Shown: one piece after another, positions 8,759-42,964 of the stretch
How the letters are laid out: every line of letters starts with the position of its first letter
Numbering within the stretch: the stretch's first letter is position 1
Source of the DNA: Thermodesulfobacteriota bacterium
Lineage (GTDB): Bacteria > Desulfobacterota > Binatia > Bin18
Direction of reading: 5' to 3'
DNA: 64,000 nt
Assembly (NCBI GenBank): GCA_964291405.2
Contig: OZ219926.1
Location: 32,001-96,000, forward strand
Made by a program: the position numbers and the translations under genes
Notes under the pieces: generated by a model
What the model was told of the DNA's origin: nothing
Database searches by the model: none
The model's input: the letters and a program-made list of their open reading frames with translations, nothing else

Positions 8759-10099
8759 ATGGAACAGATTAGGATAAAAAACTTTCGCTGCTTCCGCGAA
8801 GAGCAGACCGCACGCCTGGCACCCCTGACCCTGCTCATGGGAGAGAACAGCACCGGCAAAACCTCGTTCATGGCGCTGATCCGGGCGCTGTGGGATGTCT
8901 TCTACCGGTCCAGAGTTCCTGATTTTAAGGAAGAGCCGTATGACCTGGGCAGCTTCGATGAAATCGCCCATCATCGGGGAGGACGAGGGGGCCGTGCGGA
9001 TGCTTTTAAGGCGGGCTTTGACCTCGCTCTTGAAGATCGGGAGGGAGCAAGGGATGAACATGGCCACTTCGAGATAACTTTCGAAAAGAAAGGGACCGTG
9101 CCGGTTCCGGTGAGAAGATACCTTGCCTATAAAGATGTCTGGGTTGAAGAGCGACTCGAAGACTCACCTTATAACATTGGCTTCGGGATATCGAAGCGTG
9201 TCTGGAAACAGGAACTCACCAATATCGGGCGTATTCTTGCTGACACCGACGACGATACTCTGCTTCCCTTTTCTTCTCTTCTGCAGCGTTTACAATTGTT
9301 CTCCCAAGATTCCGACTCGCCCGGCTCACCTACCAATGAAGAGTGGAAACGAATCGAAAGACTTGCTGATCGTCTTAGATGGACGCTCTCCCGCCGTAGT
9401 TTCAACATCGGACCCTATGCCAGTGCTCCGGTCCGCTCCAAACCGCATCGAACCTATGACCCTGCACGCCCGACACGAGACCCCGTAGGCGACTACATTC
9501 CCATGTATCTCGCCAACATACATTTTCAAAACAAGGCAGAATGGAACGCTCTCAAAGACGCGCTCGAAGAATTTGGGAAAGAGGCTGGTCTGTTCGATGA
9601 AATCTCGATCAAACAGCTAGGGAAGAATGAAAGTGAGCCATTTCAGATCCAGGTCAGAAAATTCGGAAGCAAATCCAAGGGACCGCATCGCAATCTGATC
9701 GATGTCGGTTACGGTGTCAGCCAAGCACTGCCAGTCATCACCGAACTGCTGCGCCGCGACGCTCCGCCGATATTTCTGTTGCAGCAACCGGAAGTGCATC
9801 TCCACCCCAGTGCCCAGGCGGCCCTCGGAAGCCTATTCTGCCAGATCGCTGGACAAAAGCGGCAGCTCATAGTCGAAACGCACAGTGACCACCTGCTCGA
9901 TCGGGTGCGTATGGACGTGCGCGACGACAAGACGAAATTAAAGCCTGAAGACGTTTCCATCTTGTACTTTGAGCGTGACGATCTGGATGTTCGCATTCAT
10001 TCACTGCGATTTGATGAACAGGGAAACGTCTTGGACGCTCCGCCGAGCTACCGGCAGTTCTTCATGGAAGAGATGCGAAGGTCTTTATGGAAGAGATGA
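8759..10099 (+). CDS. ABC/AAA_15-21-type ATPase with DUF3696-like C-terminus
   Basis: IKNFRCF, Walker A GENSTGKT, signature DVGYGVSQ, Walker B region FLLQQPEVHLHP, H-loop VETHS. Confidence 0.88.
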   Translation: MEQIRIKNFRCFREEQTARLAPLTLLMGENSTGKTSFMALIRALWDVFYRSRVPDFKEEPYDLGSFDEIAHHRGGRGGRADAFKAGFDLALEDREGARDEHGHFEITFEKKGTVPVPVRRYLAYKDVWVEERLEDSPYNIGFGISKRVWKQELTNIGRILADTDDDTLLPFSSLLQRLQLFSQDSDSPGSPTNEEWKRIERLADRLRWTLSRRSFNIGPYASAPVRSKPHRTYDPARPTRDPVGDYIPMYLANIHFQNKAEWNALKDALEEFGKEAGLFDEISIKQLGKNESEPFQIQVRKFGSKSKGPHRNLIDVGYGVSQALPVITELLRRDAPPIFLLQQPEVHLHPSAQAALGSLFCQIAGQKRQLIVETHSDHLLDRVRMDVRDDKTKLKPEDVSILYFERDDLDVRIHSLRFDEQGNVLDAPPSYRQFFMEEMRRSLWKR

Positions 10100-10119
10100 A
10101 GTTTACAGGGGGCTGAATA

Positions 10120-10611
10120 ATGTGTGCAATTGTTGACGCCAACGTAGCTCACGAGGTGTTCGGAGACAGCCCGCCGCCTGCAGCAGAGAAATTCTTTGAG
10201 TGGCTCGAAAGGGGAAGTCGCCGGCTGGTTGTTGGTGGCAAGTTGCTCAAGGAGCTTGAAGATACTTCGCCAGACTTCAGACGCTGGGGGCCGACGGCCC
10301 AACTTTCTGGAAAAATGATAACCGTGGATGAAAGAGAAGTTGAGGCGAAAACACAGCAAATCGAACGTGAGGGTGTAATCAAGTCAGATGACCCTCATGT
10401 TCTTGCCTTGGCCCAAGTCAGTGGAGCCCGGCTATTATATTCTAACGACCAAGACCTCAGCGACGATTTCAGAGATAGAAGGTTCATCGATAGACCGCAA
10501 GGGAAAGTTTATACAACACGCAGAGATAGAAATGCTCCTCCAGCGCAGGATAATACGAGATTCCGTTCTACCCATCGGGAGTTGTTAAAAAGGAATGTCT
10601 GCCCAATCTGA
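10120..10611 (+). CDS. PIN-domain protein (putative RNase effector)
   Basis: AIVDANV, DDPHVLALA and LYSNDQDL match the PIN acidic pattern; starts 20 bp after the ATPase. Confidence 0.75.
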   Translation: MCAIVDANVAHEVFGDSPPPAAEKFFEWLERGSRRLVVGGKLLKELEDTSPDFRRWGPTAQLSGKMITVDEREVEAKTQQIEREGVIKSDDPHVLALAQVSGARLLYSNDQDLSDDFRDRRFIDRPQGKVYTTRRDRNAPPAQDNTRFRSTHRELLKRNVCPI

Positions 10612-10666
10612 TTGATTTCAGTCCAACTCGCCCTGCATCTGTAAATCCTAAGTCAAGGCTTCAAAC

Positions 10667-10839
10667 ACGCTCTGCTGTTCGACCCGCAGACCGCCGGCGG
10701 ACTTTTGGCCAGCATCCCAGCCGAGCAGGCCCAGGCGTGTATCCGGGAGCTTCAGACTCTCGACTATCAGGACGCGGCCCTTATCGGCACCGTACAAGCG
10801 CAGAGCGATGCGCTTGAGCCGATTACGCTGCAAGTATAA
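10667..10839 (+). pseudogene. Duplicated selD 3' end (direct repeat copy 2)
   Basis: Encodes [13 protein letters not shown]...EPITLQV* with no start codon; about 92% identical to 8420-8592. Confidence 0.9.
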
Positions 10840-10890
10840 CCGCCTGTGTTACAATCCGGTCGGACCTGACAAATCACTGGAGGTGTCTGT

Positions 10891-11709
10891 ATGCTTCACG
10901 GTCTCTCGGCGATATTTTTATATTCAGCGCTATCGATATCTTTCGTTTTTGAGGGTGGTAGTACGGAAAAGATGGGAACAGGATTCTTTATCAAGAATGA
11001 ATCCAACTCCTTTTTTGTTACAAATAGGCATGTAATTAGTTGTGGAGAGAAATTGGGGAAAATTCAGCGTATTATCATTGAAGGCAAATCTGGCAGTGGA
11101 GAACCACAGTACAAGGATGACTTTGTTTTTGACGCCCATGAGTGGAACGTAGAATTCCCCGAAAATAACGATGACGACATTGCTGTTCTGTATGGAGTTA
11201 GTGGTCGGCAAGAAGGGCAGCCAGTTCTCATTGACAGGGAAATGCTTGTTACCGAGTCATACTTTGAAGATGAAGGCAACCTAGGCGTGTATGATTATGT
11301 CGCGGTACCTGGGTTTCATCCAGGGTACGATCCTACTACTAATCGACCTCTCTTTCGCGGCGGTAACATATCTAGCGATCCAAGGTACGGTCACTCTTTG
11401 CGCATCAAAACCAGATTCGATAATTGCGAGGAGAACTTCGAGAGCAAGTACTATAAAAACCTAGTTGTCTATGAGACTTTTTCCTATCCCGGATCGTCAG
11501 GAAGTCCGGTGTTTGCACTCCAGAAAGGTATAAAGCCAGGTAAAGGGCTATCTTTTCCCGCATATAGGCCAACGAAACTAATAGGCATTCAGTCTGTGAT
11601 GAGATCTACAAATCTAGGAAAACAGACAGGCTTACACCATAGTGGCCTTTCCTATTTCTTCAAATCCTCCGCAATCCTTGAAATCCTTGACTCAATTCCA
11701 AAGAGATAG
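10891..11709 (+). CDS. Trypsin-like serine peptidase
   Basis: GTGFFI, triad motifs TNRHV / DIAVL / PGSSGSPV; AT-rich DNA; GGAGG RBS. Confidence 0.82.
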   Translation: MLHGLSAIFLYSALSISFVFEGGSTEKMGTGFFIKNESNSFFVTNRHVISCGEKLGKIQRIIIEGKSGSGEPQYKDDFVFDAHEWNVEFPENNDDDIAVLYGVSGRQEGQPVLIDREMLVTESYFEDEGNLGVYDYVAVPGFHPGYDPTTNRPLFRGGNISSDPRYGHSLRIKTRFDNCEENFESKYYKNLVVYETFSYPGSSGSPVFALQKGIKPGKGLSFPAYRPTKLIGIQSVMRSTNLGKQTGLHHSGLSYFFKSSAILEILDSIPKR

Positions 11710-11734
11710 TGCACGTAAGGGTAGGGCTGTCTTC

Positions 11735-11854
11735 TCACCGCTCCAATGCCGTCACAATCTCCCTAAAACGAGCAAGCCCGGACTCCAGGTTTTCAATGAT
11801 TTCGGTTGCCAGTTCATCGGGCTCAGGCAGATTATCGAAGTCGGCCAGACTTTT
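11735..11854 (-). pseudogene. 3' remnant resembling the C-terminus of a type I R-M methyltransferase (HsdM)
   Basis: KSLADFDNLPEPDELATEIIENLESGLARFREIVTALER* resembles the typical HsdM tail; the rest of the gene is absent. Confidence 0.7.
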
Positions 11855-11856
11855 CC

Positions 11857-12648
11857 TTATCGGACGTAGCGTCTGGATCGAGTACTGTTTGGAATGCGGG
11901 GCTGAAGTGCTCGCTGATTCCATATCCGCAAGGCGGAGATACACTTCTCACACTTGCAAGACCATGGATCGTGAAAGGACACTGTCATGATGATGCGATC
12001 CCAGATGAGAAACGCCCAGTAATGCCATTTACCAAAGGCCGCCTCTAAAACGCGAAAACGATAGTCAAAGATACCAGGATATCGGCCGTGCGTTTCATCA
12101 TTAGGAAGTTCTTTCATAGCTAGAAAATGGTCTGGGGGCTGCTCCGTTGGAGAAGTCTCGGTGCATTTGAGTTCGATATCTTCCGGTAGAATAGTGCTGT
12201 GATGGTGGAAATACAGGCCGCGTACGATTTTCCACGCTACTCGCGCTACACGGGTACCATCTTGACGCATTATGACGCGACCTGCTGGGAGATGTAGGCC
12301 GCTGGGCCGGGTTTCAAATTGGCGAAGTATTTTCTTCGCTAATTTCCGTTTCTTCGTACCCTTCCGAGAGTTCTCGAAAAATTGTTTGTATATGGCGTCT
12401 CCTGCCTCTGAGCCTAGTGCAAACGGAACCGTCGTTGCTATGAAATACTCCTCATCAGACGAGTAGAACGCGTTACAGTCTTTGTGAACCGGAATGGTGA
12501 TCAACTGGCTGAGGTTGTGTCGCTTCCTGATTTCTCGGGCGAACAGCGCCCGTGGCGGACAATGGTCATCACTATTATCTGGACGTGACAATGGATGGCC
12601 ACACAAATAGCAGAGTGTGGGATCCTTTTGACGGATTGATTCTTTCAG
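11857..12648 (-). CDS. HNH-like zinc-binding nuclease
   Basis: The frame extends upstream of the called TTG to include CYLCG; then DHCPPRALF and VHKDCN. Possible CTG start at 12648 after AGAGGT (start uncertain). Confidence 0.65.
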   Translation of the reverse strand: MKESIRQKDPTLCYLCGHPLSRPDNSDDHCPPRALFAREIRKRHNLSQLITIPVHKDCNAFYSSDEEYFIATTVPFALGSEAGDAIYKQFFENSRKGTKKRKLAKKILRQFETRPSGLHLPAGRVIMRQDGTRVARVAWKIVRGLYFHHHSTILPEDIELKCTETSPTEQPPDHFLAMKELPNDETHGRYPGIFDYRFRVLEAAFGKWHYWAFLIWDRIIMTVSFHDPWSCKCEKCISALRIWNQRALQPRIPNSTRSRRYVR

Positions 12649-27801: not shown

Positions 27802-27907
27802 GGATTTTATGGGAGGTAGACTCTATTGATATAGACGAATTTGATCCATACATTTGACAATGAACGATGGACAGGGAGGGCATTCGCTCAGGTGCTCGTA
27901 AAAAAGA

Positions 27908-28525
27908 ATGAAGGCGCCCAGCATGACAACGCCTGATACAGATACAATTGATCCGAGTTCCTTTCCTCGGGAGATACAGCAGCCTGAAAAATTTCTGGTG
28001 CCGTTTGACCCTGTTGCCCTAGCAGCAGGACAGATAGGTGAAGACTCTTTCACGTTCCGAGGTGGTGAGCAGGTAGAACTCTCGGAGATGGAAAGGGCGT
28101 TGACTCAACCCCTTGAGCCTATTGAAACGTCTGACGACGATATTAAGTCCCAAGCCCATCAATTCCACGATACCATACTCGCTTATGAGCGTCGCATCAA
28201 AGTTCTGAAGGAGCAAGCGGAGCTTGATGGATATTCGCTCAACTTTGCTTCCGAAGGCGCCTTTTTTGATTTCCTACAAAAAAACCTGATTATAAGACGT
28301 GGGCGACTTGTCCTTATGGAAAACGGTAATCTTCGAGCAATTTGGAAAAGTGAGAGGGAGACTCATATCGGACTTCAGTTTCTAGCCAACCAATCCATCC
28401 AGTATGTCATATTCACACGCCGAAAACCTCAGCTTCCTGTTTCGAGAGTAAGCGGGCGAGATACAATGGATGGCATAATGAAGCAGATTGAGGCGTTCGA
28501 CTTGGGTGATGTACTGTACACATGA
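27908..28525 (+). CDS. Hypothetical protein, candidate antitoxin/partner
   Basis: 205 aa, lower GC; ATGA overlap with the next gene; acidic N-terminal region and a beta-rich C-domain (LMENGNLRAIW). Confidence 0.7.
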   Translation: MKAPSMTTPDTDTIDPSSFPREIQQPEKFLVPFDPVALAAGQIGEDSFTFRGGEQVELSEMERALTQPLEPIETSDDDIKSQAHQFHDTILAYERRIKVLKEQAELDGYSLNFASEGAFFDFLQKNLIIRRGRLVLMENGNLRAIWKSERETHIGLQFLANQSIQYVIFTRRKPQLPVSRVSGRDTMDGIMKQIEAFDLGDVLYT

Positions 28526-28986
28526 CCGGAGATCAGATCCCCGACGCTCATCATATCGTTCGATATGTGAGACCGACACTTGTTGATGGTGAGGCCGTCG
28601 ATGGTAGCGCGTTTCTTCTGAGATCAAACGAAGAGAGGCTCTCTGTAAACTGGCTGGAAGTATTCGGGGGTAATGATGAGCATCGCCAACTCGGTGAAGT
28701 CCGACGCCTGTTCAGACTGAGACTGGCGAGAAACGGGCGGTTTGCAAAACTCAATGTGGGGGCGACGAAGCAGTACGTCTCAGAAGCTGCAGAGGAACTA
28801 GGGATTGTTGCCGCAGAGGAACTAGGGGTTGTTGAAGCGCCCTTGTCCCCCACAGACGAATTCGAAGCCGACCCCTCCCATGCCGAGATCATCGGCCTTC
28901 CGCCAGGAGAGAGCGATGAGGCGATGCTTGTCGGCGACTTGATCGCCGAGTGTGTTATCTACCTTCGCCCAGGAAGAACTGACTGA
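28522..28986 (+). CDS. Hypothetical protein with ART/RES-like motif pattern, candidate toxin
   Basis: IVRYV...SAF...LSVNW...DPSHAEI; fold assignment is an inference. Confidence 0.6.
   Translation: MTGDQIPDAHHIVRYVRPTLVDGEAVDGSAFLLRSNEERLSVNWLEVFGGNDEHRQLGEVRRLFRLRLARNGRFAKLNVGATKQYVSEAAEELGIVAAEELGVVEAPLSPTDEFEADPSHAEIIGLPPGESDEAMLVGDLIAECVIYLRPGRTD
28786..28833 (+). repeat. 24-bp in-frame tandem duplication (AAEELGIV/AAEELGVV)
   Basis: GCTGCAGAGGAACTAGGGATTGTT then GCCGCAGAGGAACTAGGGGTTGTT. Confidence 0.85.
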
Positions 28987-29048
28987 AGGTATATACGTCG
29001 GCACCCTGAGCACCGCTCCTGCTGGAGGGACCACTTGTGTGTGGCGAT

Positions 29049-32000
29049 TCATGTCGAGTCAGCGAGCGATCCAGCCAAGGCTATAGCTCTGGCGCGGACA
29101 TGAAACCAGGAGTCGATTGGCAGGACTCTTTCTATCTCATCAAGGTGGCCGAGGAATATCTGTAGGGATCTTTTCGGAGGCGGAGGTAAATGGGTCGCGA
29201 TGCGAGCCAGTCCTTCTTCAAGCCACTTGAACCATTCATCGTGTTCCTCATAGGCGGCAGCGGCTTGTAACAGGATTTGTAGGGTTCTTGCAATTTCTTC
29301 TGTGGACAGTCTTGGAACAATTCTTACAATCGCATCCACGGTCCCATTCGCCAAAGGCGTGCTGCGGTTTGTCGCCGCGACCATGCTAGCTGATTCCAAA
29401 AGCCTCAGATTCTCAAGTGGCTTGGTCGAGGCGTTCGTATCTCCCATCGTCCTTATGGTTTCCCATATGCGGTCCAGTTCCGGTTTACCCAAAGCAGAGA
29501 GCTGAGAAGCCGTTGCGAACCATTGCAGAAGGAACAGCTCAGTGCCGTCCGTCCGTGCTTCAAGCTTCTCAATGACCTCTTGTGGAAGGGGTTCCGTCGG
29601 TCGCTTATGGCCTTCAAGCGGTCCAGGCAGCCCGAGGACAAGCGGTTGTCCTCGATCGTCGGTCTGAGTGCGTGCGCGGCGAACGTCCTCCGACCGCGGT
29701 ACATAGCGCCCTTCGCGTTCATGGCGTGATGTAAGGACATAGAGCCGACTAAGGATTTCATTCCGCAATAGAATGTGGCTTGCAAAAAGCATCGGCTCCT
29801 GCCTAGCCTGCACGAAAGCCGCATAAGTCCCGGCCGCGGTCATGTTGCCGTAGAGCCATTTCTGAAAATTGTCGATCTCGACGAGAAAGGATGGCTCCAT
29901 CATAATACGAGCAATCAGGCCCGCCTGCATCCATGCGCCCATCCGCTTCCAGTAGCCGGGATACGTGGCCCCATTTTCCAGAAGATTGAGTCGATTGAGC
30001 ACGAATTCGTAGAGCATCTGAAGCAGGCTGTAGATATCAACGCCTTCCGGCTGTCCGAATTTCTCGTCCAAGAGCGTGGTAACGGCCATAGCCGCGAACT
30101 CGCGAAAACGTTCGTCTTCCTGGCGATACAGCGCGACGTCGAGCGCGCCGAGCAACGAGAACGGATTGCTTGTCGCGTGACATGAAGAAAGCGCATCCCA
30201 CACGCCGTCATTGTCAAGTTCGGTTACCCACTGCCCGGGGGTCAAGTCGTCGCGCAGCGCGCCGAGGCAACAGATATCGAGTCCAACCCGAACATCGCGG
30301 TTCAAGAGTGCTTTTCGGTAGGGCACGAGCAGGTCGCGAAAGTAGGATTCAGGTTCTTGCGCGTCAGGGTTTGGACCGATGAATCGTTCAAAATAAGATA
30401 GGGATTGCGGGACAAGGTCTGTCACATTGAAGGACGAATCCTGTTGTATTTTTTGGAGCAGTCTGGCCTGAACAACCGCGACGCCGTTCGTAGACTCCTC
30501 AAATATCGCGGCCAGCTCCTGGTCGGTGAGCTGGCGTGAGGTAATGGAGTCGAGAAGCTCACGAAAATCTGTCGCGGTCGGTCCAAGACGGTCAATGATC
30601 GTCCCAAGCGCATCACGCCGCACTTCCGGGCTTGGTGAGAGGAGAGCCCAGTCTGGCACCTGGGTCTGCTGGGTCACCCCCTCGTCATCAGTCCATTTCA
30701 CGACTACCTGCTGGTCATCGCCCTGGAGATCGACCAACACCCCCTTTCCGGCAACATCTTGAACGACGCTCTCCTGCTTTGTGGCGGAGACTTCCCTCGC
30801 GGCCGCAAACAGCTTGCTATTGACCAATTTGATATCCGGTCCTACCGAGAAGACGAGGTTCGTTTCAAAACCGCATCGGCGCGCAAACTCCGCATCTTGG
30901 GCGATGACCAGTCTACGAGCATCCTTCGGCAACTGCTCCAAAAAAAGATTTCCGTACATCTCTTGATTGTTTTCAAGGGCTGAAATCCCATTGGAGACCT
31001 CCAGCAGTGTCTTCTTGATTAAGTCCGCATTGGCGGGGCGTAGAGGATCAAGGATGAAGCGTTCGAGCCAACGCGTATAATGAGCTCGGCGGTCTTGCGC
31101 CCTGATAGTCGTGGGTAAAAGGAGGTTTCCTAAACGCAGAGATAACAGGTCTCGCATCCAACTGGCATAACGATCCTCTGCAATGTGCCGGGGTTTCCCA
31201 ATATCCACGTGCATCAGATAACGCCATACCCAGTTAGATTGCATTGTTGCCTGTTCTATAGTCAACGATTCGTCTTCCCACACGCGGTCGATACTGGCTT
31301 TGCCCACACGATGCAGGTTGATGGACAGGGCTAGCGTTTCCTCTGGAGTCAGGACACTGAGGGAATATATGCGGGCCATGGTCTGACGGAGAGTCTTCAG
31401 CTCTGCGCTTTCTTTCAATTGACCATTGTTCACTTGCGCCACTGTCAGCCAATGTGCCAATTCGTCAGACTCAAGCGGGATGAAGACAAAACCTCCCTGT
31501 CGAAGCTTGTGTCGTGCTGTCCAGTGATCGCCAACACTGATGCGTCCCTGAGAAACGAGGGAGCGCAAAACGTCCAACACGCAAACAAGAGGAACGGACT
31601 GTTCTGAAGGTTCGGTCAAGATCAGGTGCCTATTGATAAAACGATCATCAATACAGAGCGCATCGCAGGCGGCGATACCCGCCATCAAAGAGGTCGTCGC
31701 CTGTAGTCGGATTTCGCGTTTCTCAATCTGCTCGTCCTGATCAGTCGTGCGAGGTAGGAAGGAAGCTGCTCCCAAATCCACCGCATTGCGTAAGACATCT
31801 CGAATCCGTTCTATCTTTGTCACGAGATCAGCGCCTATATCGCCCGCTCCGATGAGTGCGGTCATTTCTTCCAGGACAGCCGGATGGATTCGAATATCCA
31901 GACCAGCAGCGGCCATGGGCTGCAACATAACGGCGTTTTGCAAGTAGGAGAGGGTGGTTCGATCGAGGTAAATCGGGCCTTGGAGGATTGGCGATGAGAG

Positions 32001-35000
32001 AGTCGCGTGCTCTGTCTGTCCCTGGCTGCTCAAAAACAGCCGTGCGCGCTGATAATCGGCCGCGGCGATTCTCCCCTCGGCGTGTAGCAGCGTGCAGAGG
32101 TCCATTGTTGAATGGATCAAATCGTCATACTCGCTCGTATCTGCTTGCTCTTCCATTAGTGACCCGGCTTTATGGATTGGTAGAACGCAAATGACCCGGC
32201 CGTTGTCCTGTCTTGCCTCATGTAAGAGCGTAGCCAGTTCGAGTCCTACCTCGTCGGTAAGAGACTTGGGAAGCTCGGTCACGTTGTCAGCAGCTCGAAG
32301 CCGTCCCTGATTTTGGAGGTCCCGAACCTGCTTGGCTGCGGCAATACGGGAAGGCTGATGAAAGCGAACCTGGTCTCTTTCGCGGAGTAGAAACTCCATG
32401 ATGTCGGGAGAAAGTTTGACGTGATGAAACGCCTCGACGGCCGTTTCCAGTAGGCCGAGATGGGAAAGGATCAGGATTGAGGTCACGTCCAATCCGATTG
32501 TCCAGTCCTGCTGCAATGCGACTGGATTCCGGCCGCCGGTGACAATCGGCAATATCCTTCGGCGGCGACCGTCCAATGCCGCAGTATTCTGATCGGGGAT
32601 ATAGAGCAGGAGATGCGCGAACGATATATTCAATTCGCTTGCCGCCAAGCTCATAGGTATCTCACCACTGAGCCATTTCCGTTCAACCTCCTCCAAACGA
32701 TCTCGGCGATTCGGCATCCATTCGGTGACGATCTCTTGTAAATTCATGGACCAAAGAGGGCCTTGGTCGGCGGAAGAAAGCTCGTAGGCGCGCTTGAGCC
32801 AGTTCGGATCGGCCTCATCATCGCGCCCGAGTCGAAAGTGCAGCCAATGGGCAGCCATCAGGATTCGAGGGTCGTCCGGTGCTTTTTGTGCGGCCAATTT
32901 GGCGAGTTGGAGCGCGCGGTCAGGTGTCAGACCCTGTTGGCCGGCGAGCTGAGCCAAAGTCATCAGTGCTTCAGGAGTAAGTGACTGCTGTCGAGGCCAC
33001 TCGCGCTCAATGATTGCCGCTATATGTTCCCAGTCGCCGGAAGCAATAGCGATATTGATGTCGAGTTGAAGATCATTCTGGTTTACCCGTTGGCTTAGGA
33101 ACCTGTCGTTGATCTCCTTTGATTCCTGAAGCCGACCTGCTTGAAACATCGCCCACGCTTGCATCTCCTTCAGTTCATCGCTCTGCGCAAGAATGTCGAG
33201 ATTCCCTCCTAAAAATTTGAGGACTGCGTCGTAGTCGAAGGAGGGGGGGGCGCTGAGGCACTTGGCGAGGTCTAGCGCATTCTCAACAGTCCGCTCACGG
33301 TCGAACAAGTCGTGGAGCAAAGGCTGAAGCGCTGCATGATCATTTACGGTCTTCAAATGAGCCACCAGGTTCTTTAGGTTGATAATATCTTTCGTCTGGT
33401 GATAAAGAAGTTCAAGTTGTTTACGAGGATCGTTCCCTTCATGGGCATCGATCATCACAGTCAAACGATTAGAGTGTACTTCGCCAAGGTCAGTTGCGTG
33501 TGCCGTTACTAGCACACGCGCCCTTTCAATCTGACCATCCTTTACCAGAGCCTCCACGTACATTGTGGCCACAAAGGCGGGAGGCATAACTTCACTCAGT
33601 CGTGTCTCATGTTGCTCCAGATAAGATACGAGATCATGGGGTTCCATGGATTGTTCAGCAAGCAGGCTCTCCGCTAGAATCTCATGGTCGTCGAGTCCGC
33701 CGAGCCGTTTTCTGTATTCCAGATATTGTTGTAGTGGCTCGACCTTGAAGGGAATTTTGAAGACATAAGCAAAAGGGATAAGCTTGACCGCCCGCGTACC
33801 TTCTTCTATGCCCTGACGTATCTCATCACGGACGACATCCGCGTTCGTAGGATTCGGGTCCATCAGCCGAAGCCAAAGACGCCAATCCGAAATGAATCCT
33901 ACCAAATCAGGGTCGGCGATATCCTTCATCCTCTGTTCGGCGAATTCTAGGCAGATAGCGGCGCGAGCATAATGTTTCTCAGCTTCCTCTCCCAAGGTCG
34001 GAGTGACGCCGGGATAAATAGGTACGGTCTCAAGTGCCCTCTCCCGATACTCGTCCGGTAACAACATGGCTGCGTTGATGATCCCTTCGATAAATGAGAG
34101 CGCAGGCATGTGCTTCCAATCGGGCTCGAAACTCTGGAGGCGCACCGCAGCTTCGTTCCAGCGTCCGACCTTGACCATGCAAAGAACCCAATTCCACCAG
34201 CCAATATCAGTGAAGAATTTGTCGTCGTCAGGTTCAGCTTGCTCGATGTACCAATCCAAGGCTGCACGCTCACCTTGTGAACGAATCAGAACGCCGAACA
34301 AACCGGTCCTAGAATCAGGGTCGTTACGATCCCTCAGCAGACGAAGCGCTTCATCGGGGTTGCCATCAGCCTCCGTGAGCAGAGCATCCAGAATAGAGAG
34401 GTCTCTGTCAGGATCAGTCTTCCGTAGCTCATCGCGAAGCTGTCGTGCGGAATCACGTGTTTCGGCATCACTGACGCATAATATTGCGGTCCGGTAGAGA
34501 ATCCTGTTTTTGGTAGAAGTGGATGCTGCGAGAAGATCGCCTTCATCGCCTACGCGCTGCCTCAGTTTTTGAATGTCCTGTCGTGCTCGGCGCTGATCAA
34601 ACATTCGGAGCATAAGAATTCGGGACAATTCTTCCTCTGCCTGATCGGTGTGAGCTTGTTGAATGATCGGGTCAGTTAGGGCCGAAACGTACCCGAACAT
34701 TTCCTGGAGCATACCGGCTAACGCTCGTTGGTCGGCAGGGATCGAAGCAATATATCCAGCCACAAGAATAGCAACCGTAATGTCTATCGATTCGTCTGCT
34801 AGATGACCGGCTTCACCCGTTCGACTTGAGTAGCTGTGGGCTAAGCGTGTGCGAATTTCCGTATCGCTGACGGCTCCGCCCATTATGAGCGCTTTTGCTA
34901 AGACTTTCAGATCGCCCGCAACGGGTGTGTCGGCAAGCCATTTCTGCAACACTGGATTGGTCAAAAAGTCCGGGGCAATGTACTGGTGGCCAATCCGATC

Positions 35001-35225
35001 TAGGATTCTTCTCCACCAGGAGTCCTCAATGTTTCCTCTCCGCAACCTGTCCAAGGTCTGGTCTAGATTGCTCTCCATCAGAGGCAAGTTGGTAGGTCCC
35101 CGCCCGGCCTTCCGCTCTGCATACAAGCGTGATGCATACTTAGCTGCATACTTGAAGGTAGCCTGAGCAACTGGTCGGAGAAGGGAAGCTAGAACTGATA
35201 GGGTTGGATCGGACATTTGCAGCAT
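29049..35225 (-). CDS. Giant helical-repeat (TPR-like) protein with central PIN-like motifs
   Basis: Uninterrupted ORF of about 2058-2070 aa; GAGGTG RBS before ATG 35225; Leu/Ala/Glu/Arg-rich helices; IGLDVTSILILSHLGLL, IYLDRTTLSYL, ALCIDDRFIN. Confidence 0.75.
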   Translation of the reverse strand: MLQMSDPTLSVLASLLRPVAQATFKYAAKYASRLYAERKAGRGPTNLPLMESNLDQTLDRLRRGNIEDSWWRRILDRIGHQYIAPDFLTNPVLQKWLADTPVAGDLKVLAKALIMGGAVSDTEIRTRLAHSYSSRTGEAGHLADESIDITVAILVAGYIASIPADQRALAGMLQEMFGYVSALTDPIIQQAHTDQAEEELSRILMLRMFDQRRARQDIQKLRQRVGDEGDLLAASTSTKNRILYRTAILCVSDAETRDSARQLRDELRKTDPDRDLSILDALLTEADGNPDEALRLLRDRNDPDSRTGLFGVLIRSQGERAALDWYIEQAEPDDDKFFTDIGWWNWVLCMVKVGRWNEAAVRLQSFEPDWKHMPALSFIEGIINAAMLLPDEYRERALETVPIYPGVTPTLGEEAEKHYARAAICLEFAEQRMKDIADPDLVGFISDWRLWLRLMDPNPTNADVVRDEIRQGIEEGTRAVKLIPFAYVFKIPFKVEPLQQYLEYRKRLGGLDDHEILAESLLAEQSMEPHDLVSYLEQHETRLSEVMPPAFVATMYVEALVKDGQIERARVLVTAHATDLGEVHSNRLTVMIDAHEGNDPRKQLELLYHQTKDIINLKNLVAHLKTVNDHAALQPLLHDLFDRERTVENALDLAKCLSAPPSFDYDAVLKFLGGNLDILAQSDELKEMQAWAMFQAGRLQESKEINDRFLSQRVNQNDLQLDINIAIASGDWEHIAAIIEREWPRQQSLTPEALMTLAQLAGQQGLTPDRALQLAKLAAQKAPDDPRILMAAHWLHFRLGRDDEADPNWLKRAYELSSADQGPLWSMNLQEIVTEWMPNRRDRLEEVERKWLSGEIPMSLAASELNISFAHLLLYIPDQNTAALDGRRRRILPIVTGGRNPVALQQDWTIGLDVTSILILSHLGLLETAVEAFHHVKLSPDIMEFLLRERDQVRFHQPSRIAAAKQVRDLQNQGRLRAADNVTELPKSLTDEVGLELATLLHEARQDNGRVICVLPIHKAGSLMEEQADTSEYDDLIHSTMDLCTLLHAEGRIAAADYQRARLFLSSQGQTEHATLSSPILQGPIYLDRTTLSYLQNAVMLQPMAAAGLDIRIHPAVLEEMTALIGAGDIGADLVTKIERIRDVLRNAVDLGAASFLPRTTDQDEQIEKREIRLQATTSLMAGIAACDALCIDDRFINRHLILTEPSEQSVPLVCVLDVLRSLVSQGRISVGDHWTARHKLRQGGFVFIPLESDELAHWLTVAQVNNGQLKESAELKTLRQTMARIYSLSVLTPEETLALSINLHRVGKASIDRVWEDESLTIEQATMQSNWVWRYLMHVDIGKPRHIAEDRYASWMRDLLSLRLGNLLLPTTIRAQDRRAHYTRWLERFILDPLRPANADLIKKTLLEVSNGISALENNQEMYGNLFLEQLPKDARRLVIAQDAEFARRCGFETNLVFSVGPDIKLVNSKLFAAAREVSATKQESVVQDVAGKGVLVDLQGDDQQVVVKWTDDEGVTQQTQVPDWALLSPSPEVRRDALGTIIDRLGPTATDFRELLDSITSRQLTDQELAAIFEESTNGVAVVQARLLQKIQQDSSFNVTDLVPQSLSYFERFIGPNPDAQEPESYFRDLLVPYRKALLNRDVRVGLDICCLGALRDDLTPGQWVTELDNDGVWDALSSCHATSNPFSLLGALDVALYRQEDERFREFAAMAVTTLLDEKFGQPEGVDIYSLLQMLYEFVLNRLNLLENGATYPGYWKRMGAWMQAGLIARIMMEPSFLVEIDNFQKWLYGNMTAAGTYAAFVQARQEPMLFASHILLRNEILSRLYVLTSRHEREGRYVPRSEDVRRARTQTDDRGQPLVLGLPGPLEGHKRPTEPLPQEVIEKLEARTDGTELFLLQWFATASQLSALGKPELDRIWETIRTMGDTNASTKPLENLRLLESASMVAATNRSTPLANGTVDAIVRIVPRLSTEEIARTLQILLQAAAAYEEHDEWFKWLEEGLARIATHLPPPPKRSLQIFLGHLDEIERVLPIDSWFHVRARAIALAGSLADST

Positions 35226-35360
35226 CTCACCTCGTACTACAGGCTTGAGTTTTTGTACCATGAACCGAAAAAGTAAGTATACATAATTGTAACCATAGTT
35301 ACCTCGCTCGTTTATAGTATTTTCACCGTCGGTCTGAGCGTTAAGCTGACCCTAGGCCAG

Positions 35361-35428
35361 GTACTGTCCTAATTTGAGGTTTTTCCCTCAACAGAAACAG
35401 TGGCTTACAGTTCAAAATAGGACAGTCC
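35361..35428. repeat. Small inverted-repeat (MITE-like) element at the island edge
   Basis: ACTGTCCTAATTTGA ... TCAAAATAGGACAGT (14/15 inverted match); half copy GGACTGTCCTAATT at 54181. Confidence 0.6.
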
Positions 35429-35563
35429 CCAAGGCTGATGCTACTTTACTTTGAATCTGTTATATTCTACTAAAGACGAGCAACACCTCTGGCGGTGTTA
35501 CATGTGGATGGTGTGGAATGGATCCGTTGTGTGGTGGAGATGTGGTATGTGGAGGAGGAATCC

Positions 35564-36049
35564 ATGGGAGTGGTGCTGGAGGTCGAAGTCCCACAAAGAG
35601 CGTTTAATCGTCGTATCCAACCCTTTGCTATTGCCCTTGCCGAAGTCTCCTGGCGCGTGAAGATGTTCACGCACGAGGGAGTGGTTCTGGCAGCCCTGTA
35701 TCTTGAGGAGCCGGACCTCATCCTCGCCATGGTCCTGTGGCCGAATGTAGATTCTGCGCGGCGTTTGTTCAAAGGACATTTTGAAGTTTGTTTATGCTCG
35801 GCGGCAGACCCGGTGGGGCGGGTGCGTCTTGCCGTGCAGATTGACCCTGCCATGGTCGAGGAACTCTTTGTCGCCGCCGAGTTGATTAACCCCAAGCCGT
35901 CAAAGGCGGGTGCGAAGCGGGCGGAAAAATATTTTACCGAGTTCCTGGCGTTAGGCTTCCCGGACTCTCAAGTCGTCTGGGCGCGGTCGTGCCGATGGCA
36001 GGATACGCCCGAGTACCTGGAGGCGACGACGCCCATCCGGGTGGGCTGA
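35564..36049 (+). CDS. Hypothetical protein (161 aa)
   Basis: Strong GGAGGAGG RBS before ATG 35564; no recognised motif. Confidence 0.6.
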   Translation: MGVVLEVEVPQRAFNRRIQPFAIALAEVSWRVKMFTHEGVVLAALYLEEPDLILAMVLWPNVDSARRLFKGHFEVCLCSAADPVGRVRLAVQIDPAMVEELFVAAELINPKPSKAGAKRAEKYFTEFLALGFPDSQVVWARSCRWQDTPEYLEATTPIRVG

Positions 36050-39964: not shown

Positions 39965-40078
39965 TCCCGAGACGTATGATGCATAGTGTGGCGTGAGCCT
40001 CCCAGGGGCCGCTCGCCCTCCTGCTGCCTGGGAGCGCGGCCATCCTGGCCGCGTGCGGGCTGGCAGCCCGCCCTCCGC
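39965..40078. repeat. Family D repeat (inverted relative to 19200-19335)
   Basis: CTGGGAGCGCGGCCATCCTGGCCGCGTGCGGGCTGGCAGCCCGC plus shared flank. Confidence 0.72.
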
Positions 40079-40159
40079 AAGGAGGCGCGATCCGGGTTCC
40101 ACCGCCGCGTGAAGGGCGCGAGCCGGCCTCACCCTTTGACGGAGACGTGCACAGGCCTC

Positions 40160-42964
40160 CTACTCGACCTCGGTAATCACAAAATTCTGTTGGTTCTGTT
40201 GCCACGCCAGCGTGACCGTCTGCCCCAGGGCCGGGAAGTCCGCCACCACACATTCCCCCTCGACGCCCCGCAGAAACTCCGCGCCCAGCGTGGTCACGCG
40301 TACCGTCGCCCGCCCGAGTTCTTCCCCGTCCACATAGGCCGTGACGGTATGCTCCCCGTCGTCCAGCCGGTTCCAGTTGAACAACAGCCCAAACCCGTTG
40401 TCCGTGTCGCCACACACTGCTTCGGTGTCCAGCCGCTCGGTGCCGTAGCCCGCCTCCTGTCGCTCCGTCTCTCCATTCTCTGTCTCGAACTCAATCTCCA
40501 CCGTCTCGGCCTCGCACACCCAGCCCGAAATCACCCCAATCCCGCTCTGAAAGGAGTTGGAGCCCGGATTCTCCAGATACCCCACCCCGGCCGTCCCGGC
40601 CCGGTTCTCTCCGGTCGGGGCGGGGCCGGCCGCGATCACGAAGTTCTGACGCGCCTCCTGCCACTCCAGCGTGACCCGCTCGCCGGGACTCGGAAAGTCC
40701 GCCACCACGCACTCTCCCTCGGCCTCCCGGAGAAAGTCAGGCCCCAGTGTCGTCACGCGCACCGTGGCCCGCCCGAGTTCTTCTCCGTCCACGTAGGCCA
40801 CGACGGTATGTTCCCCATCCTCCAGCCGGTTCCAGTTGAATAACAACCCGAAGCCGGTGTCCACGTCCCCGCAGAACTCTTCCGTGTCCTCCCGCTCTGT
40901 CCCATACGCCGCCTCCTGGGGCATCCCGTTCAGTTCGATCACGACCGACTCGGCGGCACACACCCAACCCGAGATAACCCCGATGCCGCTCTGAAAGGAG
41001 GCGGGGCCGGGGTTCTCCAGGGTGCCGACGACCAGGGTGGTCTCCAGGGTGTAGGCCCCGGGCTGACCCGCTACGGCGATGATGACCACCCCGGCGGCGA
41101 CCGGGACGCTGAGCCGGAAGTTCTGGCGCTCGCCGCCCCGGTCGGCGGTGGCAAGGACCTCCCCGGCCTGCCACACGGTGCCCCGCGTATCGGTGGCCCC
41201 GGTGGTCTCGACCACGAAGATGCCGGCCTGGGGGAGGTCGAGGGTGAAGTAGTCCATGTCGTTCGGACTGTTGAGCTGCCCCGGCGTGATGGAGGCCCAG
41301 GGCGCCGCCGGGTCGAGGGGAACCGGGGTCGCCTGCCCGGGTGTGTCCCCGTGCTCGTCTTGGGGGAGAGAGCCGCCACCCCCTCCGCTACCCCCATTCC
41401 CGCCGCTCGGCGGTGGTGGAGGCGGTGGAGGCGGTGGTGGTAGTGATGTATCGTTCCTCACCGCCCGGTCGGTAAAATCCCGCGCCTTGTTCCTGACCAA
41501 ATCCTGGACGGGTGTCGCCTCCGTTCCGGTTGGCGCCGTATAACTCAACCGCACCTCGTCGCTCGTTCCGACCGCAGTGAGAAGGGTCAATGTGACCGTA
41601 CTGTCGTCTATCGACACGCCGGTGACCTCGTTCGACTCGCCCCCGACGGTCACCGCGAACGCATCGGATGCTGGTACCGAGTTCTCATCCAGCATCTCGT
41701 CATAGCGCAACGTCAGCGTCGCGCCATTGACGACAAGCGGATCATCTGTGACTAACTGTGGCCAGAGGCCATCCACCTTGTGTCCCTCGACGTCTGTCAG
41801 GGCGTCGAGAATCAGTATCGCGTCCTGGTTGTCGCTGTCGCGAATGGTCCCGTCGTGCAGGTCCAGCGCGTCGGCTGCGATGCTCAACCCGTTGGGGTCT
41901 TCGTCCCCGATCTCCGGGACATCGTACCCGAGGAGGCGCAGGATACTCGCAGGGAAGCGGTCGACACCCTCGGCGACGGTATACCTGAACACCAGGACCG
42001 TTGTCCCCGACCCACTCTCGTATGACGCGGCTCGCTCATAGGAGCCGGTGCTGTCGAAGGTGAGCCAGAGTTGAGGGGTACCCGTAACCGTGACACTCTC
42101 GCTGAACGTCACCTCGATCTCGATCACTTCCCCGCCAGCGTAGGTTTGTCGGGCTGCGGGCATTGAGCTGATCGCCACGCTGCTCACACCCACGACGGAG
42201 GTCGTCACCGCCTGATTGACCAGCGCCGCGACGCGGTTGCCTGCCTTGTCCTGGATGGGATCAGTTCCGACGGTATAACTCACCGTCACCTGGTCGGTTG
42301 CCGCCACCGCCGAAGCGAGGGTGAGCGTGACCGCGCGGGCGCTGATCGATACGTCGATCACAGCTCGCTCCGCGTTGTTCACCATCACCGCATAGTCGCT
42401 GGCGGGCGTCCGCGAATACAACCAGAGTGTGTCGTTGTAGGTCAGCACGAGATGCGTGCCGTGTACCGCCGCTGTCTGGAGGACCGGCGTAATGCCGTCG
42501 ACTTCAAGTCTATATCTCGGATCCTCATGCGCCTCGTGCTCCAGGTCTGCGTCGAGGTCGGCATTGTGCTTTTTAATGCTGCCACCGTTTAACTTGAGTG
42601 CATTGGCGTCAATCGTGACGTCGGGGGCTTCGTCGGTGTCCGCTACGGGGTAGTGGAAAACCAGGGCCGTTGAGGGCGGGCCGCTTTGATAATCGGCTTG
42701 GCGGGTCTTGGAGCCGATGGTCAGGTCGATTTGCGGCGTGCCAGTGACGGCCACGACCTCGCTGAAGGTCACGGTCACTTCGATGATGTCGGCAAGTTTG
42801 TAATCGTAGTAAATAGGTAACTCATCCGTACGTGAGAAAGCGATACTCTCGATCATCGGGGCATCTGTCTGGCCCCCGACGCTAGGGGGGAATAGTGCCA
42901 CCATGAACACGAGTAGGGCGGCGGTGAGACTCAACCTCCGTATCAATACTCGACAGAGTCTCAT
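40160..42964 (-). CDS. Secreted protein with Ig-like/SwmB-like repeats, poly-Pro linker, DEHGD domain and duplicated LENP...GFGLLFNWN module
   Basis: Signal peptide; two IEVxVTFSExVxVTGTP units alternate with two LxLxY..L..P...AVxV units; C-terminal ~400 aa homologous to 14788-16764. Confidence 0.85.
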   Translation of the reverse strand: MRLCRVLIRRLSLTAALLVFMVALFPPSVGGQTDAPMIESIAFSRTDELPIYYDYKLADIIEVTVTFSEVVAVTGTPQIDLTIGSKTRQADYQSGPPSTALVFHYPVADTDEAPDVTIDANALKLNGGSIKKHNADLDADLEHEAHEDPRYRLEVDGITPVLQTAAVHGTHLVLTYNDTLWLYSRTPASDYAVMVNNAERAVIDVSISARAVTLTLASAVAATDQVTVSYTVGTDPIQDKAGNRVAALVNQAVTTSVVGVSSVAISSMPAARQTYAGGEVIEIEVTFSESVTVTGTPQLWLTFDSTGSYERAASYESGSGTTVLVFRYTVAEGVDRFPASILRLLGYDVPEIGDEDPNGLSIAADALDLHDGTIRDSDNQDAILILDALTDVEGHKVDGLWPQLVTDDPLVVNGATLTLRYDEMLDENSVPASDAFAVTVGGESNEVTGVSIDDSTVTLTLLTAVGTSDEVRLSYTAPTGTEATPVQDLVRNKARDFTDRAVRNDTSLPPPPPPPPPPPSGGNGGSGGGGGSLPQDEHGDTPGQATPVPLDPAAPWASITPGQLNSPNDMDYFTLDLPQAGIFVVETTGATDTRGTVWQAGEVLATADRGGERQNFRLSVPVAAGVVIIAVAGQPGAYTLETTLVVGTLENPGPASFQSGIGVISGWVCAAESVVIELNGMPQEAAYGTEREDTEEFCGDVDTGFGLLFNWNRLEDGEHTVVAYVDGEELGRATVRVTTLGPDFLREAEGECVVADFPSPGERVTLEWQEARQNFVIAAGPAPTGENRAGTAGVGYLENPGSNSFQSGIGVISGWVCEAETVEIEFETENGETERQEAGYGTERLDTEAVCGDTDNGFGLLFNWNRLDDGEHTVTAYVDGEELGRATVRVTTLGAEFLRGVEGECVVADFPALGQTVTLAWQQNQQNFVITEVE

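Follow-up and report, generated by a model that had tools for sequence, protein, structure and literature searches.

A 2,070-residue protein with tandem PIN-like domains on a horizontally acquired island of a Binatia genome, and its likeness to TPR-GreA/B-C-PIN conflict systems

What might a bacterial protein of 2,070 amino acids do which joins a long helical array to two PIN-like domains, has no recognisable NTPase, and is encoded on a small low-GC (guanine plus cytosine) insertion between conserved genes? The gene in question (hereafter the giant) lies in a 64,000-nucleotide stretch of contig OZ219926.1 (positions 32,001 to 96,000, forward strand; hereafter the window) from Thermodesulfobacteriota bacterium assembly GCA_964291405.2, which belongs to the class Binatia, and it is accompanied by a pair of small genes, A and B. 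A first-pass annotation, made from the sequence alone, had proposed a single-chain sensor and RNase of the immune type. The computational follow-up described here indicates that the giant resembles the predicted TPR-GreA/B-C-PIN conflict systems most closely, that its family is widespread and moves between genomes, and that a role against invaders, with the second PIN-like domain as the nuclease, is rather likely. The features of the island are listed in Table 1.

Table 1. Features of the giant gene, the adjacent pair and the island in the window (positions are those of the window; residues are those of the 2,070-residue protein)
Feature	Position	Strand	Basis or remark
Giant open reading frame, 2,070 aa, ATG start (probable true start M13 or M16)	29049..35261	-	Open reading frame list and database copies
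N-terminal head module, residues ~16-195, helical-looking	34677..35216	-	Swap point at residues ~193-205
Helical, weakly TPR-like array, residues ~200-840	32742..34664	-	Below-cutoff TPR matches; conserved along the family
HTH (helix-turn-helix), Pfam PF24407 HTH_upst_double_PIN, residues 846-911	32529..32726	-	Pfam and model (three helices)
PIN-like domain 1 (PIN1), residues 915-1092	31986..32519	-	Conservation, hhalign, model, fold search
PIN-like domain 2 (PIN2), residues 1093-1262, candidate active nuclease	31476..31985	-	Conservation (37 sequences), model, fold search
Helical spacer, residues 1263-1440; its end is the split point of the distant relatives' two genes	30942..31475	-	
C-module, residues 1441-2070	29052..30941	-	Separate gene of ~630-640 aa in distant relatives
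Permuted_GreAB-C-like stretch, first ~100 aa of the C-module	about 30642-30809	-	PF24388 matches in relatives
Gene A, 205 aa, with an N-terminal part (~90 aa) that varies and a conserved C-terminal domain of ~115 aa	27908..28525	+	
Gene B, 154 aa	28522..28986	+	Overlaps gene A by 4 nt at its start
Inserted island (A, B, giant and the inverted-repeat element at its right end), ~7.6 kb	27805..35434	.	Congener alignment
Element of ~85 bp with 18-nt terminal inverted repeats	35350..35435	.	At the island/flank junction

Tandem PIN-like domains in a multi-part protein

The open reading frame (ORF) of about 6.2 kb reported in the first-pass annotation was found to be uninterrupted over all of its 2,070 codons, while the end coordinate given there (35428) takes in the upstream inverted repeat as well as the ORF. 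A search of database proteins returned 237 homologues of the giant at E<=1e-3, with identities of 46-88% among the 120 matches listed and many proteins matched end to end, so that the ORF can be taken as a real gene rather than a chance feature; a family alignment of 40 sequences had a mean column identity of 57%. The first 12-15 codons are doubtful, because a near-identical database copy begins at M13 of the window protein and the family consensus in the 40-sequence alignment begins at M16, and the true start is probably one of these two methionines, for a protein of about 2,060 residues. Predicted promoter and terminator sites were no more numerous than in shuffled sequence. One near-identical copy, protein P0009 (1,577/1,579 residues), is only 1,612 amino acids long and stops approximately 480 residues before the C-terminus of the window giant (the alignment output reaches residue ~1525); truncation of the allele or a frameshift in the assembly may account for this.

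The two PIN-type first-strand motifs and the closing motif quoted in the first-pass annotation were located at residues 922 (IGLDVTS), 1097 (IYLDRTT) and 1203 (CIDDRF), and the two halves in which the first-strand motifs lie were found to be homologous to one another (hhalign probability 95.8%, E 7.5e-9, 157 columns). Conservation of acidic residues was scored over 37 sequences with identities down to 25%. In the second half, D1100 is kept in 34/37 sequences, E1132 in 30/37 (as D or E) and both D1206 and D1230 in 37/37, with position 1205 being acidic in all 37 sequences and aspartate in 36 of them. The first half keeps D925 (37/37) and E961 (35/37), as well as an invariant FHQPSR at residues 967-972; its VLP aligns with the IDD of the second half, and the later acidic pair is gone. 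Judged from this alignment, only PIN2 of the two PIN-like halves holds all four acidic positions, and the earlier description of two PIN motifs thus stands for the motifs themselves and for the kinship of the halves, but not for a full acidic set in the first.

An AlphaFold2 model of residues 830-1440 (mean pLDDT, the predicted local confidence, 87.8; pTM, the predicted overall fold score, 0.83) contained the three HTH helices, two beta-alpha-beta units and a helical tail; in the second unit the conserved acidic residues come directly behind strands 1, 4 and 5. The modelled units have the parallel sheet and the beta-alpha-beta order of the alpha/beta fold of the PIN-like superfamily. When the model was submitted to a VIA fold search, which is independent of Foldseek, PIN-domain structures came out on top, as the first-pass annotation had led one to expect: 28 of the 50 listed rows cover the PIN region with Z-scores of 5.8-8.3. 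Seven of these rows are titled PIN or PilT-N, namely 1o4w (Z 8.3, root-mean-square deviation 3.2, 121/125 residues), 2dok (Z 8.1), 2hwy (7.8), 2mdt (7.8), 5yz4 (7.2), 6md3 (6.7) and 4mj7 (6.2); four are VapBC entries, and most of the remainder we take to be PIN-like also. Among the matches are PIN domains from Utp24, Rrp44 and SMG6.

Ahead of the PIN-like domains, PF24407 scored 50 bits (cutoff 27, E 3.9e-13), which is the only above-cutoff Pfam match in the giant, and the same domain was present in all 120 homologues among the matches listed. PF20698, the Pfam family for the PIN of the TPR-GreAB-C-PIN system, exceeded its cutoff in full-length or N-gene relatives (57.1 bits in L034 and 51.1 bits in L032), in each of which it matched two stretches. 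The array described earlier as TPR-like gave Pfam matches to TPR_14 (E 0.05) and TPR_19 (E 4.8e-4), both below cutoff; it can be called helical, and TPR-like in a weak sense only. The absence of a Walker A motif noted in the first-pass annotation was confirmed, there being no match to [AG]xxxxGK[ST] or to the looser G..GK, and neither the Pfam nor the NCBIfam scan returned an NTPase family for the giant. Hydropathy peaks at residues 158-176 (19-residue window), where the Kyte-Doolittle mean is a borderline 1.73. An NCBIfam scan of the giant, A and B gave nothing meaningful, and a PDB sequence-profile search with the whole giant family gave nothing credible.

Beyond the layout seen in the first-pass annotation, four features had been missed: the HTH, a swappable N-terminal head, a GreAB-C-like C-module and split two-gene forms. 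Homology to the giant breaks at residues ~193-205 in 35/157 matched proteins, and in relatives the head position is occupied by SIR2_2 (P0024, P0025), HNH_2 (32.5 bits in L035 and 23.2 bits in L034, cutoff 21), a DUF676 alpha/beta-hydrolase (27.7 bits in L037 and 22.4 bits in L036, cutoff 20.3) or SMEK_N (145 bits in L010). A 2,213-residue relative on Leptolyngbya boryana plasmid p1 (L122:1358-7999), named 'caspase family protein' in RefSeq, matches residues 807-1447 of the giant (HTH, double PIN and spacer) at 22% identity; this peptidase-headed relative adjoins an IS110 transposase. The head of the window giant itself gave no Pfam match. In an exhaustive search it was found in 243 cluster representatives; 149 of these were mapped, and in 145 it begins no later than residue 60. 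It also tops proteins which cannot otherwise be aligned to the giant. Among its bearers are canonical single-PIN TPR proteins, P0198 and P0197 (PF20698 at 80.7 and 28.3 bits, respectively), and two proteins, P0269 and P0186, with below-cutoff NACHT/AAA_16 matches. Several members are almost headless, homology beginning at subject residues 1-12, although some of these may be truncated. The family thus appears, from these comparisons, to have a constant core to which different effectors or adaptors are joined at the N-terminus.

At the other end of the protein, the C-module is encoded apart in distant relatives, where an N-gene of ~1,260-1,535 aa is followed by a C-gene of ~640-650 aa; this split form was seen in at least 8 of 39 genomic loci, and the database contains 20 or more clusters, 628-640 aa in length, which span 97-99% of the window C-module. 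On a conjugative plasmid of Agrobacterium fabrum, RefSeq has the two as overlapping genes of 1,529 aa and 639 aa. The sole recurrent family among 37 C-modules is PF24388 (Permuted_GreAB-C), which matched 14 of them at E<=1 (best 3.6e-7), within the first ~100 residues, and which reached 26.8 bits in a full-length relative of 55% identity (0.2 bits short of the cutoff of 27). These weak profile hits suggest that the C-module opens with a GreA/B-C-like stretch. Its last ~530 residues gave no family match, no PDB profile match and no usable match in the Atlas.

Family distribution and a variable insertion site

The giant family was found at 39 loci of named genomes from Binatia, Acidobacteriota, Alpha- and Gammaproteobacteria, Spirochaetia, Nitrospirota and Thermodesulfobacteriota, the set also including two archaeal bins. 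The family tree does not follow taxonomy, and distant relatives are present on 9 plasmid records, while a phage collection searched for relatives of the giant gave no match. The family is widespread and moves horizontally.

Homologues of the giant were seen near defence genes, a link raised in the first-pass annotation, when the nearest ORFs at the 39 loci (122 ORFs of at least 120 aa, within ~1.8 kb) were compared with PADLOC families: 23 of them, in 18 of the loci, matched at E<=1e-10. The matches include type I, IIG and III restriction-modification (RM), DrmD, HmaA, BrxC/BrxF, ThsB-TIR, AbiEi, HEC-01A and SngC. A Pfam scan of 203 neighbours added HipA, Fic, HepT, PIN, GmrSD, CAP12-TIR and NADAR/PRTase-CE, together with many transposases, a RepC and conjugation genes.

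Within the genus, the giant and the pair lie together on a single horizontally acquired insertion, as the first-pass annotation had suggested. The spacing between acd and ORF184 (with DAHP synthase next to it) is 120-174 bp in 7 same-genus genomes, which represent empty sites, and 594-953 bp in 3 more, whereas in the window the two flanks stand 7.7 kb apart and enclose A, B and the giant (27802-35494). The same island occupies this site in 3 genomes of the genus, the window's own and two congeners. In G017 it is intact at 80% identity; in G006 (L096, L097, L108) the giant has decayed to residues 1-366 joined to residues 1647-2066, with A and B still adjacent. A separate giant fragment (residues 1393-2065) was also observed elsewhere in the G006 chromosome. 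Overall, the giant was found in 2/24 other same-genus genomes and in 0/16 genomes from other genera of the class.

Four congeners carry other cargo between acd and ORF184 (loci L118-L121): a HicB-like antitoxin gene in one case and a PIN_3 toxin gene in another, a PDDEXK nuclease (YhcG) together with a peptidase (YgjP) in a third, and, in the fourth, PIN toxins and transposases along with a type I RM operon in which a SIR2_2 gene is embedded. Within the genus, the cargo of this intergenic region varies. The island in the window has a GC content of 52.9%, compared to 57.7% in the rest of the window, and the GC content at third codon positions is 56.7% in the giant, 46.1% in A and 54.2% in B, compared to 66-68% in the flanking genes.

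Published relatives and the likely role of the giant

The TPR-GreA/B-C-PIN conflict system was described by Kaur, Iyer, Burroughs and Aravind (eLife 2021, PMC8195603). In that paper's account, the constant core is preceded by one of 13 N-terminal domains that differ between members (EAD10, REase, HNH, PNPase, TIR, SIR2 and peptidases being named), the genes mostly stand alone with few conserved neighbours, and the authors predict that the system's GreA/B-C domain docks on a hijacked RNA polymerase, that the PIN domain cuts the transcript and that the head is a suicide back-up. The first-pass annotation had named proteins of this kind, and the above-cutoff PF20698 matches in relatives and the lead of PIN structures in the fold search agree with that naming. 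As far as the system is described there, the giant shares with it a variable head on a constant core, a helical (at most weakly TPR-like) array, a PIN of the PF20698 type, a domain of the GreA/B-C type, the lack of an NTPase and a sporadic occurrence across bacteria and archaea; in addition, the window head is 42% identical to that of the canonical single-PIN member P0198. Unlike the published system, the giant has two PIN-like domains with an HTH before them, its GreA/B-C-like stretch is permuted and follows the PIN-like domains instead of lying between array and PIN (no GreA/B-C was found at that place in the giant, which is taken by PF24407), it carries an extra C-terminal region of ~530 aa, its C-module forms a gene of its own in distant relatives, and it has a conserved two-gene neighbour at 12/39 loci.

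The Pfam models PF24407, PF20698 and PF24388 cover ~70, ~140 and ~54 residues, and the other ~1,700 residues of the giant have no family. The double-PIN architecture is known to the curators of Pfam, since the names of PF24407 and PF24388 describe parts of it. Of the literature found, only Kaur et al. 2021 describes the single-PIN system. No literature on the double-PIN form was found, though the Figure 2 source-data tables of Kaur et al., which were searched by term only, may list it. From its domain content, the giant appears to be a double-PIN, permuted-GreA/B-C branch of the TPR-GreA/B-C-PIN systems, which are the closest published kind.

Two further comparisons can be drawn. Avs and other NLR-like STAND receptors combine an N-terminal effector with a C-terminal repeat sensor, and the giant resembles them in this head-plus-repeat logic and in the presence of its head on the weak-NACHT/AAA_16 proteins P0269 and P0186; unlike them, it has no P-loop NTPase (no Walker A, no NTPase family match). 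VapC is a stand-alone toxin of ~130 aa which acts as a homodimer and is countered by the antitoxin VapB; PIN2 is like such toxins in its PIN-like fold and in having four acidic positions, but the giant fuses two PIN copies, one of them degenerate, within 2,070 residues.

On balance, we consider it reasonably likely that the giant is an anti-invader (conflict) system in which PIN2 is the nuclease, and the terms immune receptor and RNase used in the first-pass annotation would apply to it as putative ones. In such a system the repeat array, and/or the HTH and the GreA/B-C-like parts, would detect an invader cue, which, after the published idea, could be a hijacked transcription complex; detection would release PIN2 for RNA cutting, the head may serve as a second effector or as an adaptor, and the outcome would be growth arrest or abortive infection. 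A number of observations count against this interpretation. The defence role of every family member is a prediction, and so is the docking of GreA/B-C on RNA polymerase, taken over from Kaur et al. 2021, from whose published domain order the giant departs. The window giant scores 16.4 bits with PF20698 (cutoff 27.8) and its own C-module gave no PF24388 match. The VIA Z-scores of about 8 lie within the range which the tool itself states to be typical (7-8) for unmatched models, and the aligned ranges (about 90 to 400-450) leave it ambiguous which PIN half is matched; a Foldseek search of the same model against the PDB gave no match at E<=1e-3. The PADLOC neighbour counts stand without a matched background, and the PADLOC check proposed for the island genes themselves came out negative, with the giant, A and B matching 0 families of PADLOC-DB 2.0.0 at E<=0.1. 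Finally, the giant is absent from 15 of 18 metagenome loci which carry B and have at least 1.3 kb of downstream sequence, and present in 3, so that A-B does not depend on it.

It would be a different matter if the PIN-like pair were a non-catalytic scaffold or nucleic-acid-binding module, a covalently linked pseudo-dimer, with the head as sole effector and the giant as a sensor or adaptor of an NTPase-less, NLR-like type. The loss of the later acidic residues from PIN1 would suit this, as would the clear enzymes (SIR2_2, HNH_2, DUF676, caspase) at the head position of relatives and the presence of the same head on NACHT-like proteins, at the place where effectors usually are; but the four acidic positions of PIN2, kept over 37 sequences down to 25% identity, are hard to explain without catalysis or metal binding, and some members, possibly truncated in part, start at subject residues 1-12 and have hardly any head, and we regard this explanation as improbable. 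A low probability is also given to the island being mainly a selfish addiction cassette, in which A-B would be a stabiliser of the toxin-antitoxin (TA) kind and the giant would give the host no protection. As 27/39 giant loci are without A-B, the giant persists and spreads without the pair, and Pfam, PADLOC, PDB profiles and the Atlas gave no toxin family for either small protein. What speaks for such a cassette is the 4-nt overlap of A with B and their predicted binding, the occurrence of the pair at many metagenome loci either alone or together with X, a third gene, and the presence of TA genes at the same site in congeners. Set against it is the decayed giant of G006, still beside A and B, which shows that parts of the island can decay independently but is silent on benefit.

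PIN and GreA/B-like domains are also found in core RNA metabolism and transcription, and with Utp24, Rrp44 and SMG6 among the fold matches a housekeeping RNA-processing or transcription-associated factor of the lineage might be thought of. Such a role is disfavoured, and we judge it very improbable: only 2/24 other same-genus genomes searched carry the giant, and the clean empty sites, the foreign composition, the scrambled phylogeny and the one decayed copy all speak against it. The anti-invader interpretation can, on the other hand, be taken further, to an NTPase-independent, NLR-like receptor which watches transcription and which, with its asymmetric PIN pair and A-B as a plug-in, would form a three-part system. 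Here the HTH and the GreA/B-C-like C-module would dock on a polymerase or nucleic-acid complex seized by the invader, the fused PIN pair would be a built-in asymmetric 'VapC dimer' with a regulatory and a catalytic half that cuts emerging RNA, and the A-B heterodimer would be a trigger or brake for different partners (the giant or protein X). This elaboration is put forward tentatively and is, in our view, rather unlikely.

Most characterised receptor-type bacterial defences use an NTPase switch. The giant family, as read from its sequences, appears to join a large repeat sensor straight to nuclease domains and a swappable head with no NTPase between them, and it is frequent among environmental bacteria, with occasional members in archaea. 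If the state of RNA polymerase is indeed read by the GreA/B-C-like part, as the published idea has it, the giant would be a defence which senses hijacked transcription; if A-B serves alternative partners, the pair would be a new modular component of the defence repertoire; and if transcription is watched in the manner outlined above, the three-part system would be of a kind not yet described. The locus lends itself to tests: its giant is intact and the limits of the insertion are exact, a decayed copy and empty sites occur naturally in congeners, split as well as fused forms exist in nature, and A-B is a candidate accessory pair. The kind of system was already predicted in print in its single-PIN form, and the double-PIN form is recognised in Pfam names; what is new here is the description of A, B and the giant as one low-GC insertion, its empty and alternative-cargo sites, the PADLOC neighbours and the link with A-B.

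The pair A-B and other features of the site

Gene B converges on the 3' end of the giant across a gap of 62 bp and is a single-copy gene in the window's own genome. Co-occurrence of the pair with the giant, which the first-pass annotation had put forward, was seen in part: A-B lies beside the giant in 12/39 loci (in the convergent arrangement of the window in 11 of these, and co-directional after the giant in L034), and it is also found without the giant. The other 27 loci have neither the pair nor any recurrent neighbour. A and B are the only neighbour families present in at least 10 of the 39 loci, the next best being present in 5. Presence of A-B is clustered on the giant tree, where 6 changes were counted compared to a mean of 10.8 for shuffled labels (1/500 shuffles was as low), and the identities of B and of the giant run in parallel (Spearman 0.91, n=12, the kin in this sample not being independent). 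At one Binatia locus (L009:14264-15571) a DDE transposase gene was observed between the giant and the pair.

Among 52 metagenome loci with a relative of B, a relative of A lay directly upstream in 30. A related gene of ~270 aa (X) precedes A-B in 6 of the 8 giant-less loci compared, giving three-gene X-A-B operons (L045, L055, L057, L059, L062, L075). X was considered as a possible relative of a part of the giant, of A or of B, and this was rejected (hhalign probability <1%); X matched no known family. Likewise, no family was found for A or B in Pfam, PADLOC or NCBIfam, PDB sequence profiles gave nothing credible for either, and a search of the Atlas with B returned unnamed clusters only. Nothing in the searches identifies A, B or X, and the label 'ART-like', which the first-pass annotation had attached to the pair, is thus without support; the searches behind this were of Pfam, of PDB profiles by sequence and of the Atlas, and no fold search was made for A or B.

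A predicted complex of A (residues 88-205) with B scored 0.88, compared to 0.12 for the best of 3 controls; the mark used for this score, which the complex passes, is reached by 116/157 solved complexes and by 2/215 mismatched pairs. At least 98% of contacts were common to the runs, with a partner pLDDT of at least 91, and the model supports the prediction that A binds B as a heterodimer. A-B accompanies the giant as a facultative accessory module and is no obligate component of the giant's system.

The inverted repeat at the right end of the island, described in the first-pass annotation as resembling a miniature inverted-repeat transposable element and as marking the island edge, does exist (arms at 35360-35377 and 35412-35429, 89% complementary, with 34 nt between them). 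As a general boundary of the island it was rejected, the element being missing from the same island in L001 and G006; it is an insertion at the junction in the window's genome only, where it is present in a single copy, and no target-site duplication was read beside it. Its relatives amount to 8 matches of 76-90% identity at unrelated places in 6/25 congeners, with one or two per genome, and it behaves like a low-copy miniature element which landed at the junction by chance.

Beyond the junction, ORF184 (35495-36049, + strand, 184 aa) matched no family; it stands beside DAHP synthase in every congener examined, with an identity of 82-97% across congeners. An antisense ORF over it (35470-35895) is less conserved and is probably no gene. 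Across the window as a whole, where the mean GC content is ~57%, the extremes were a dip to 48.4% at 10001-12000 and a peak of 66.7% at 40001-42000.

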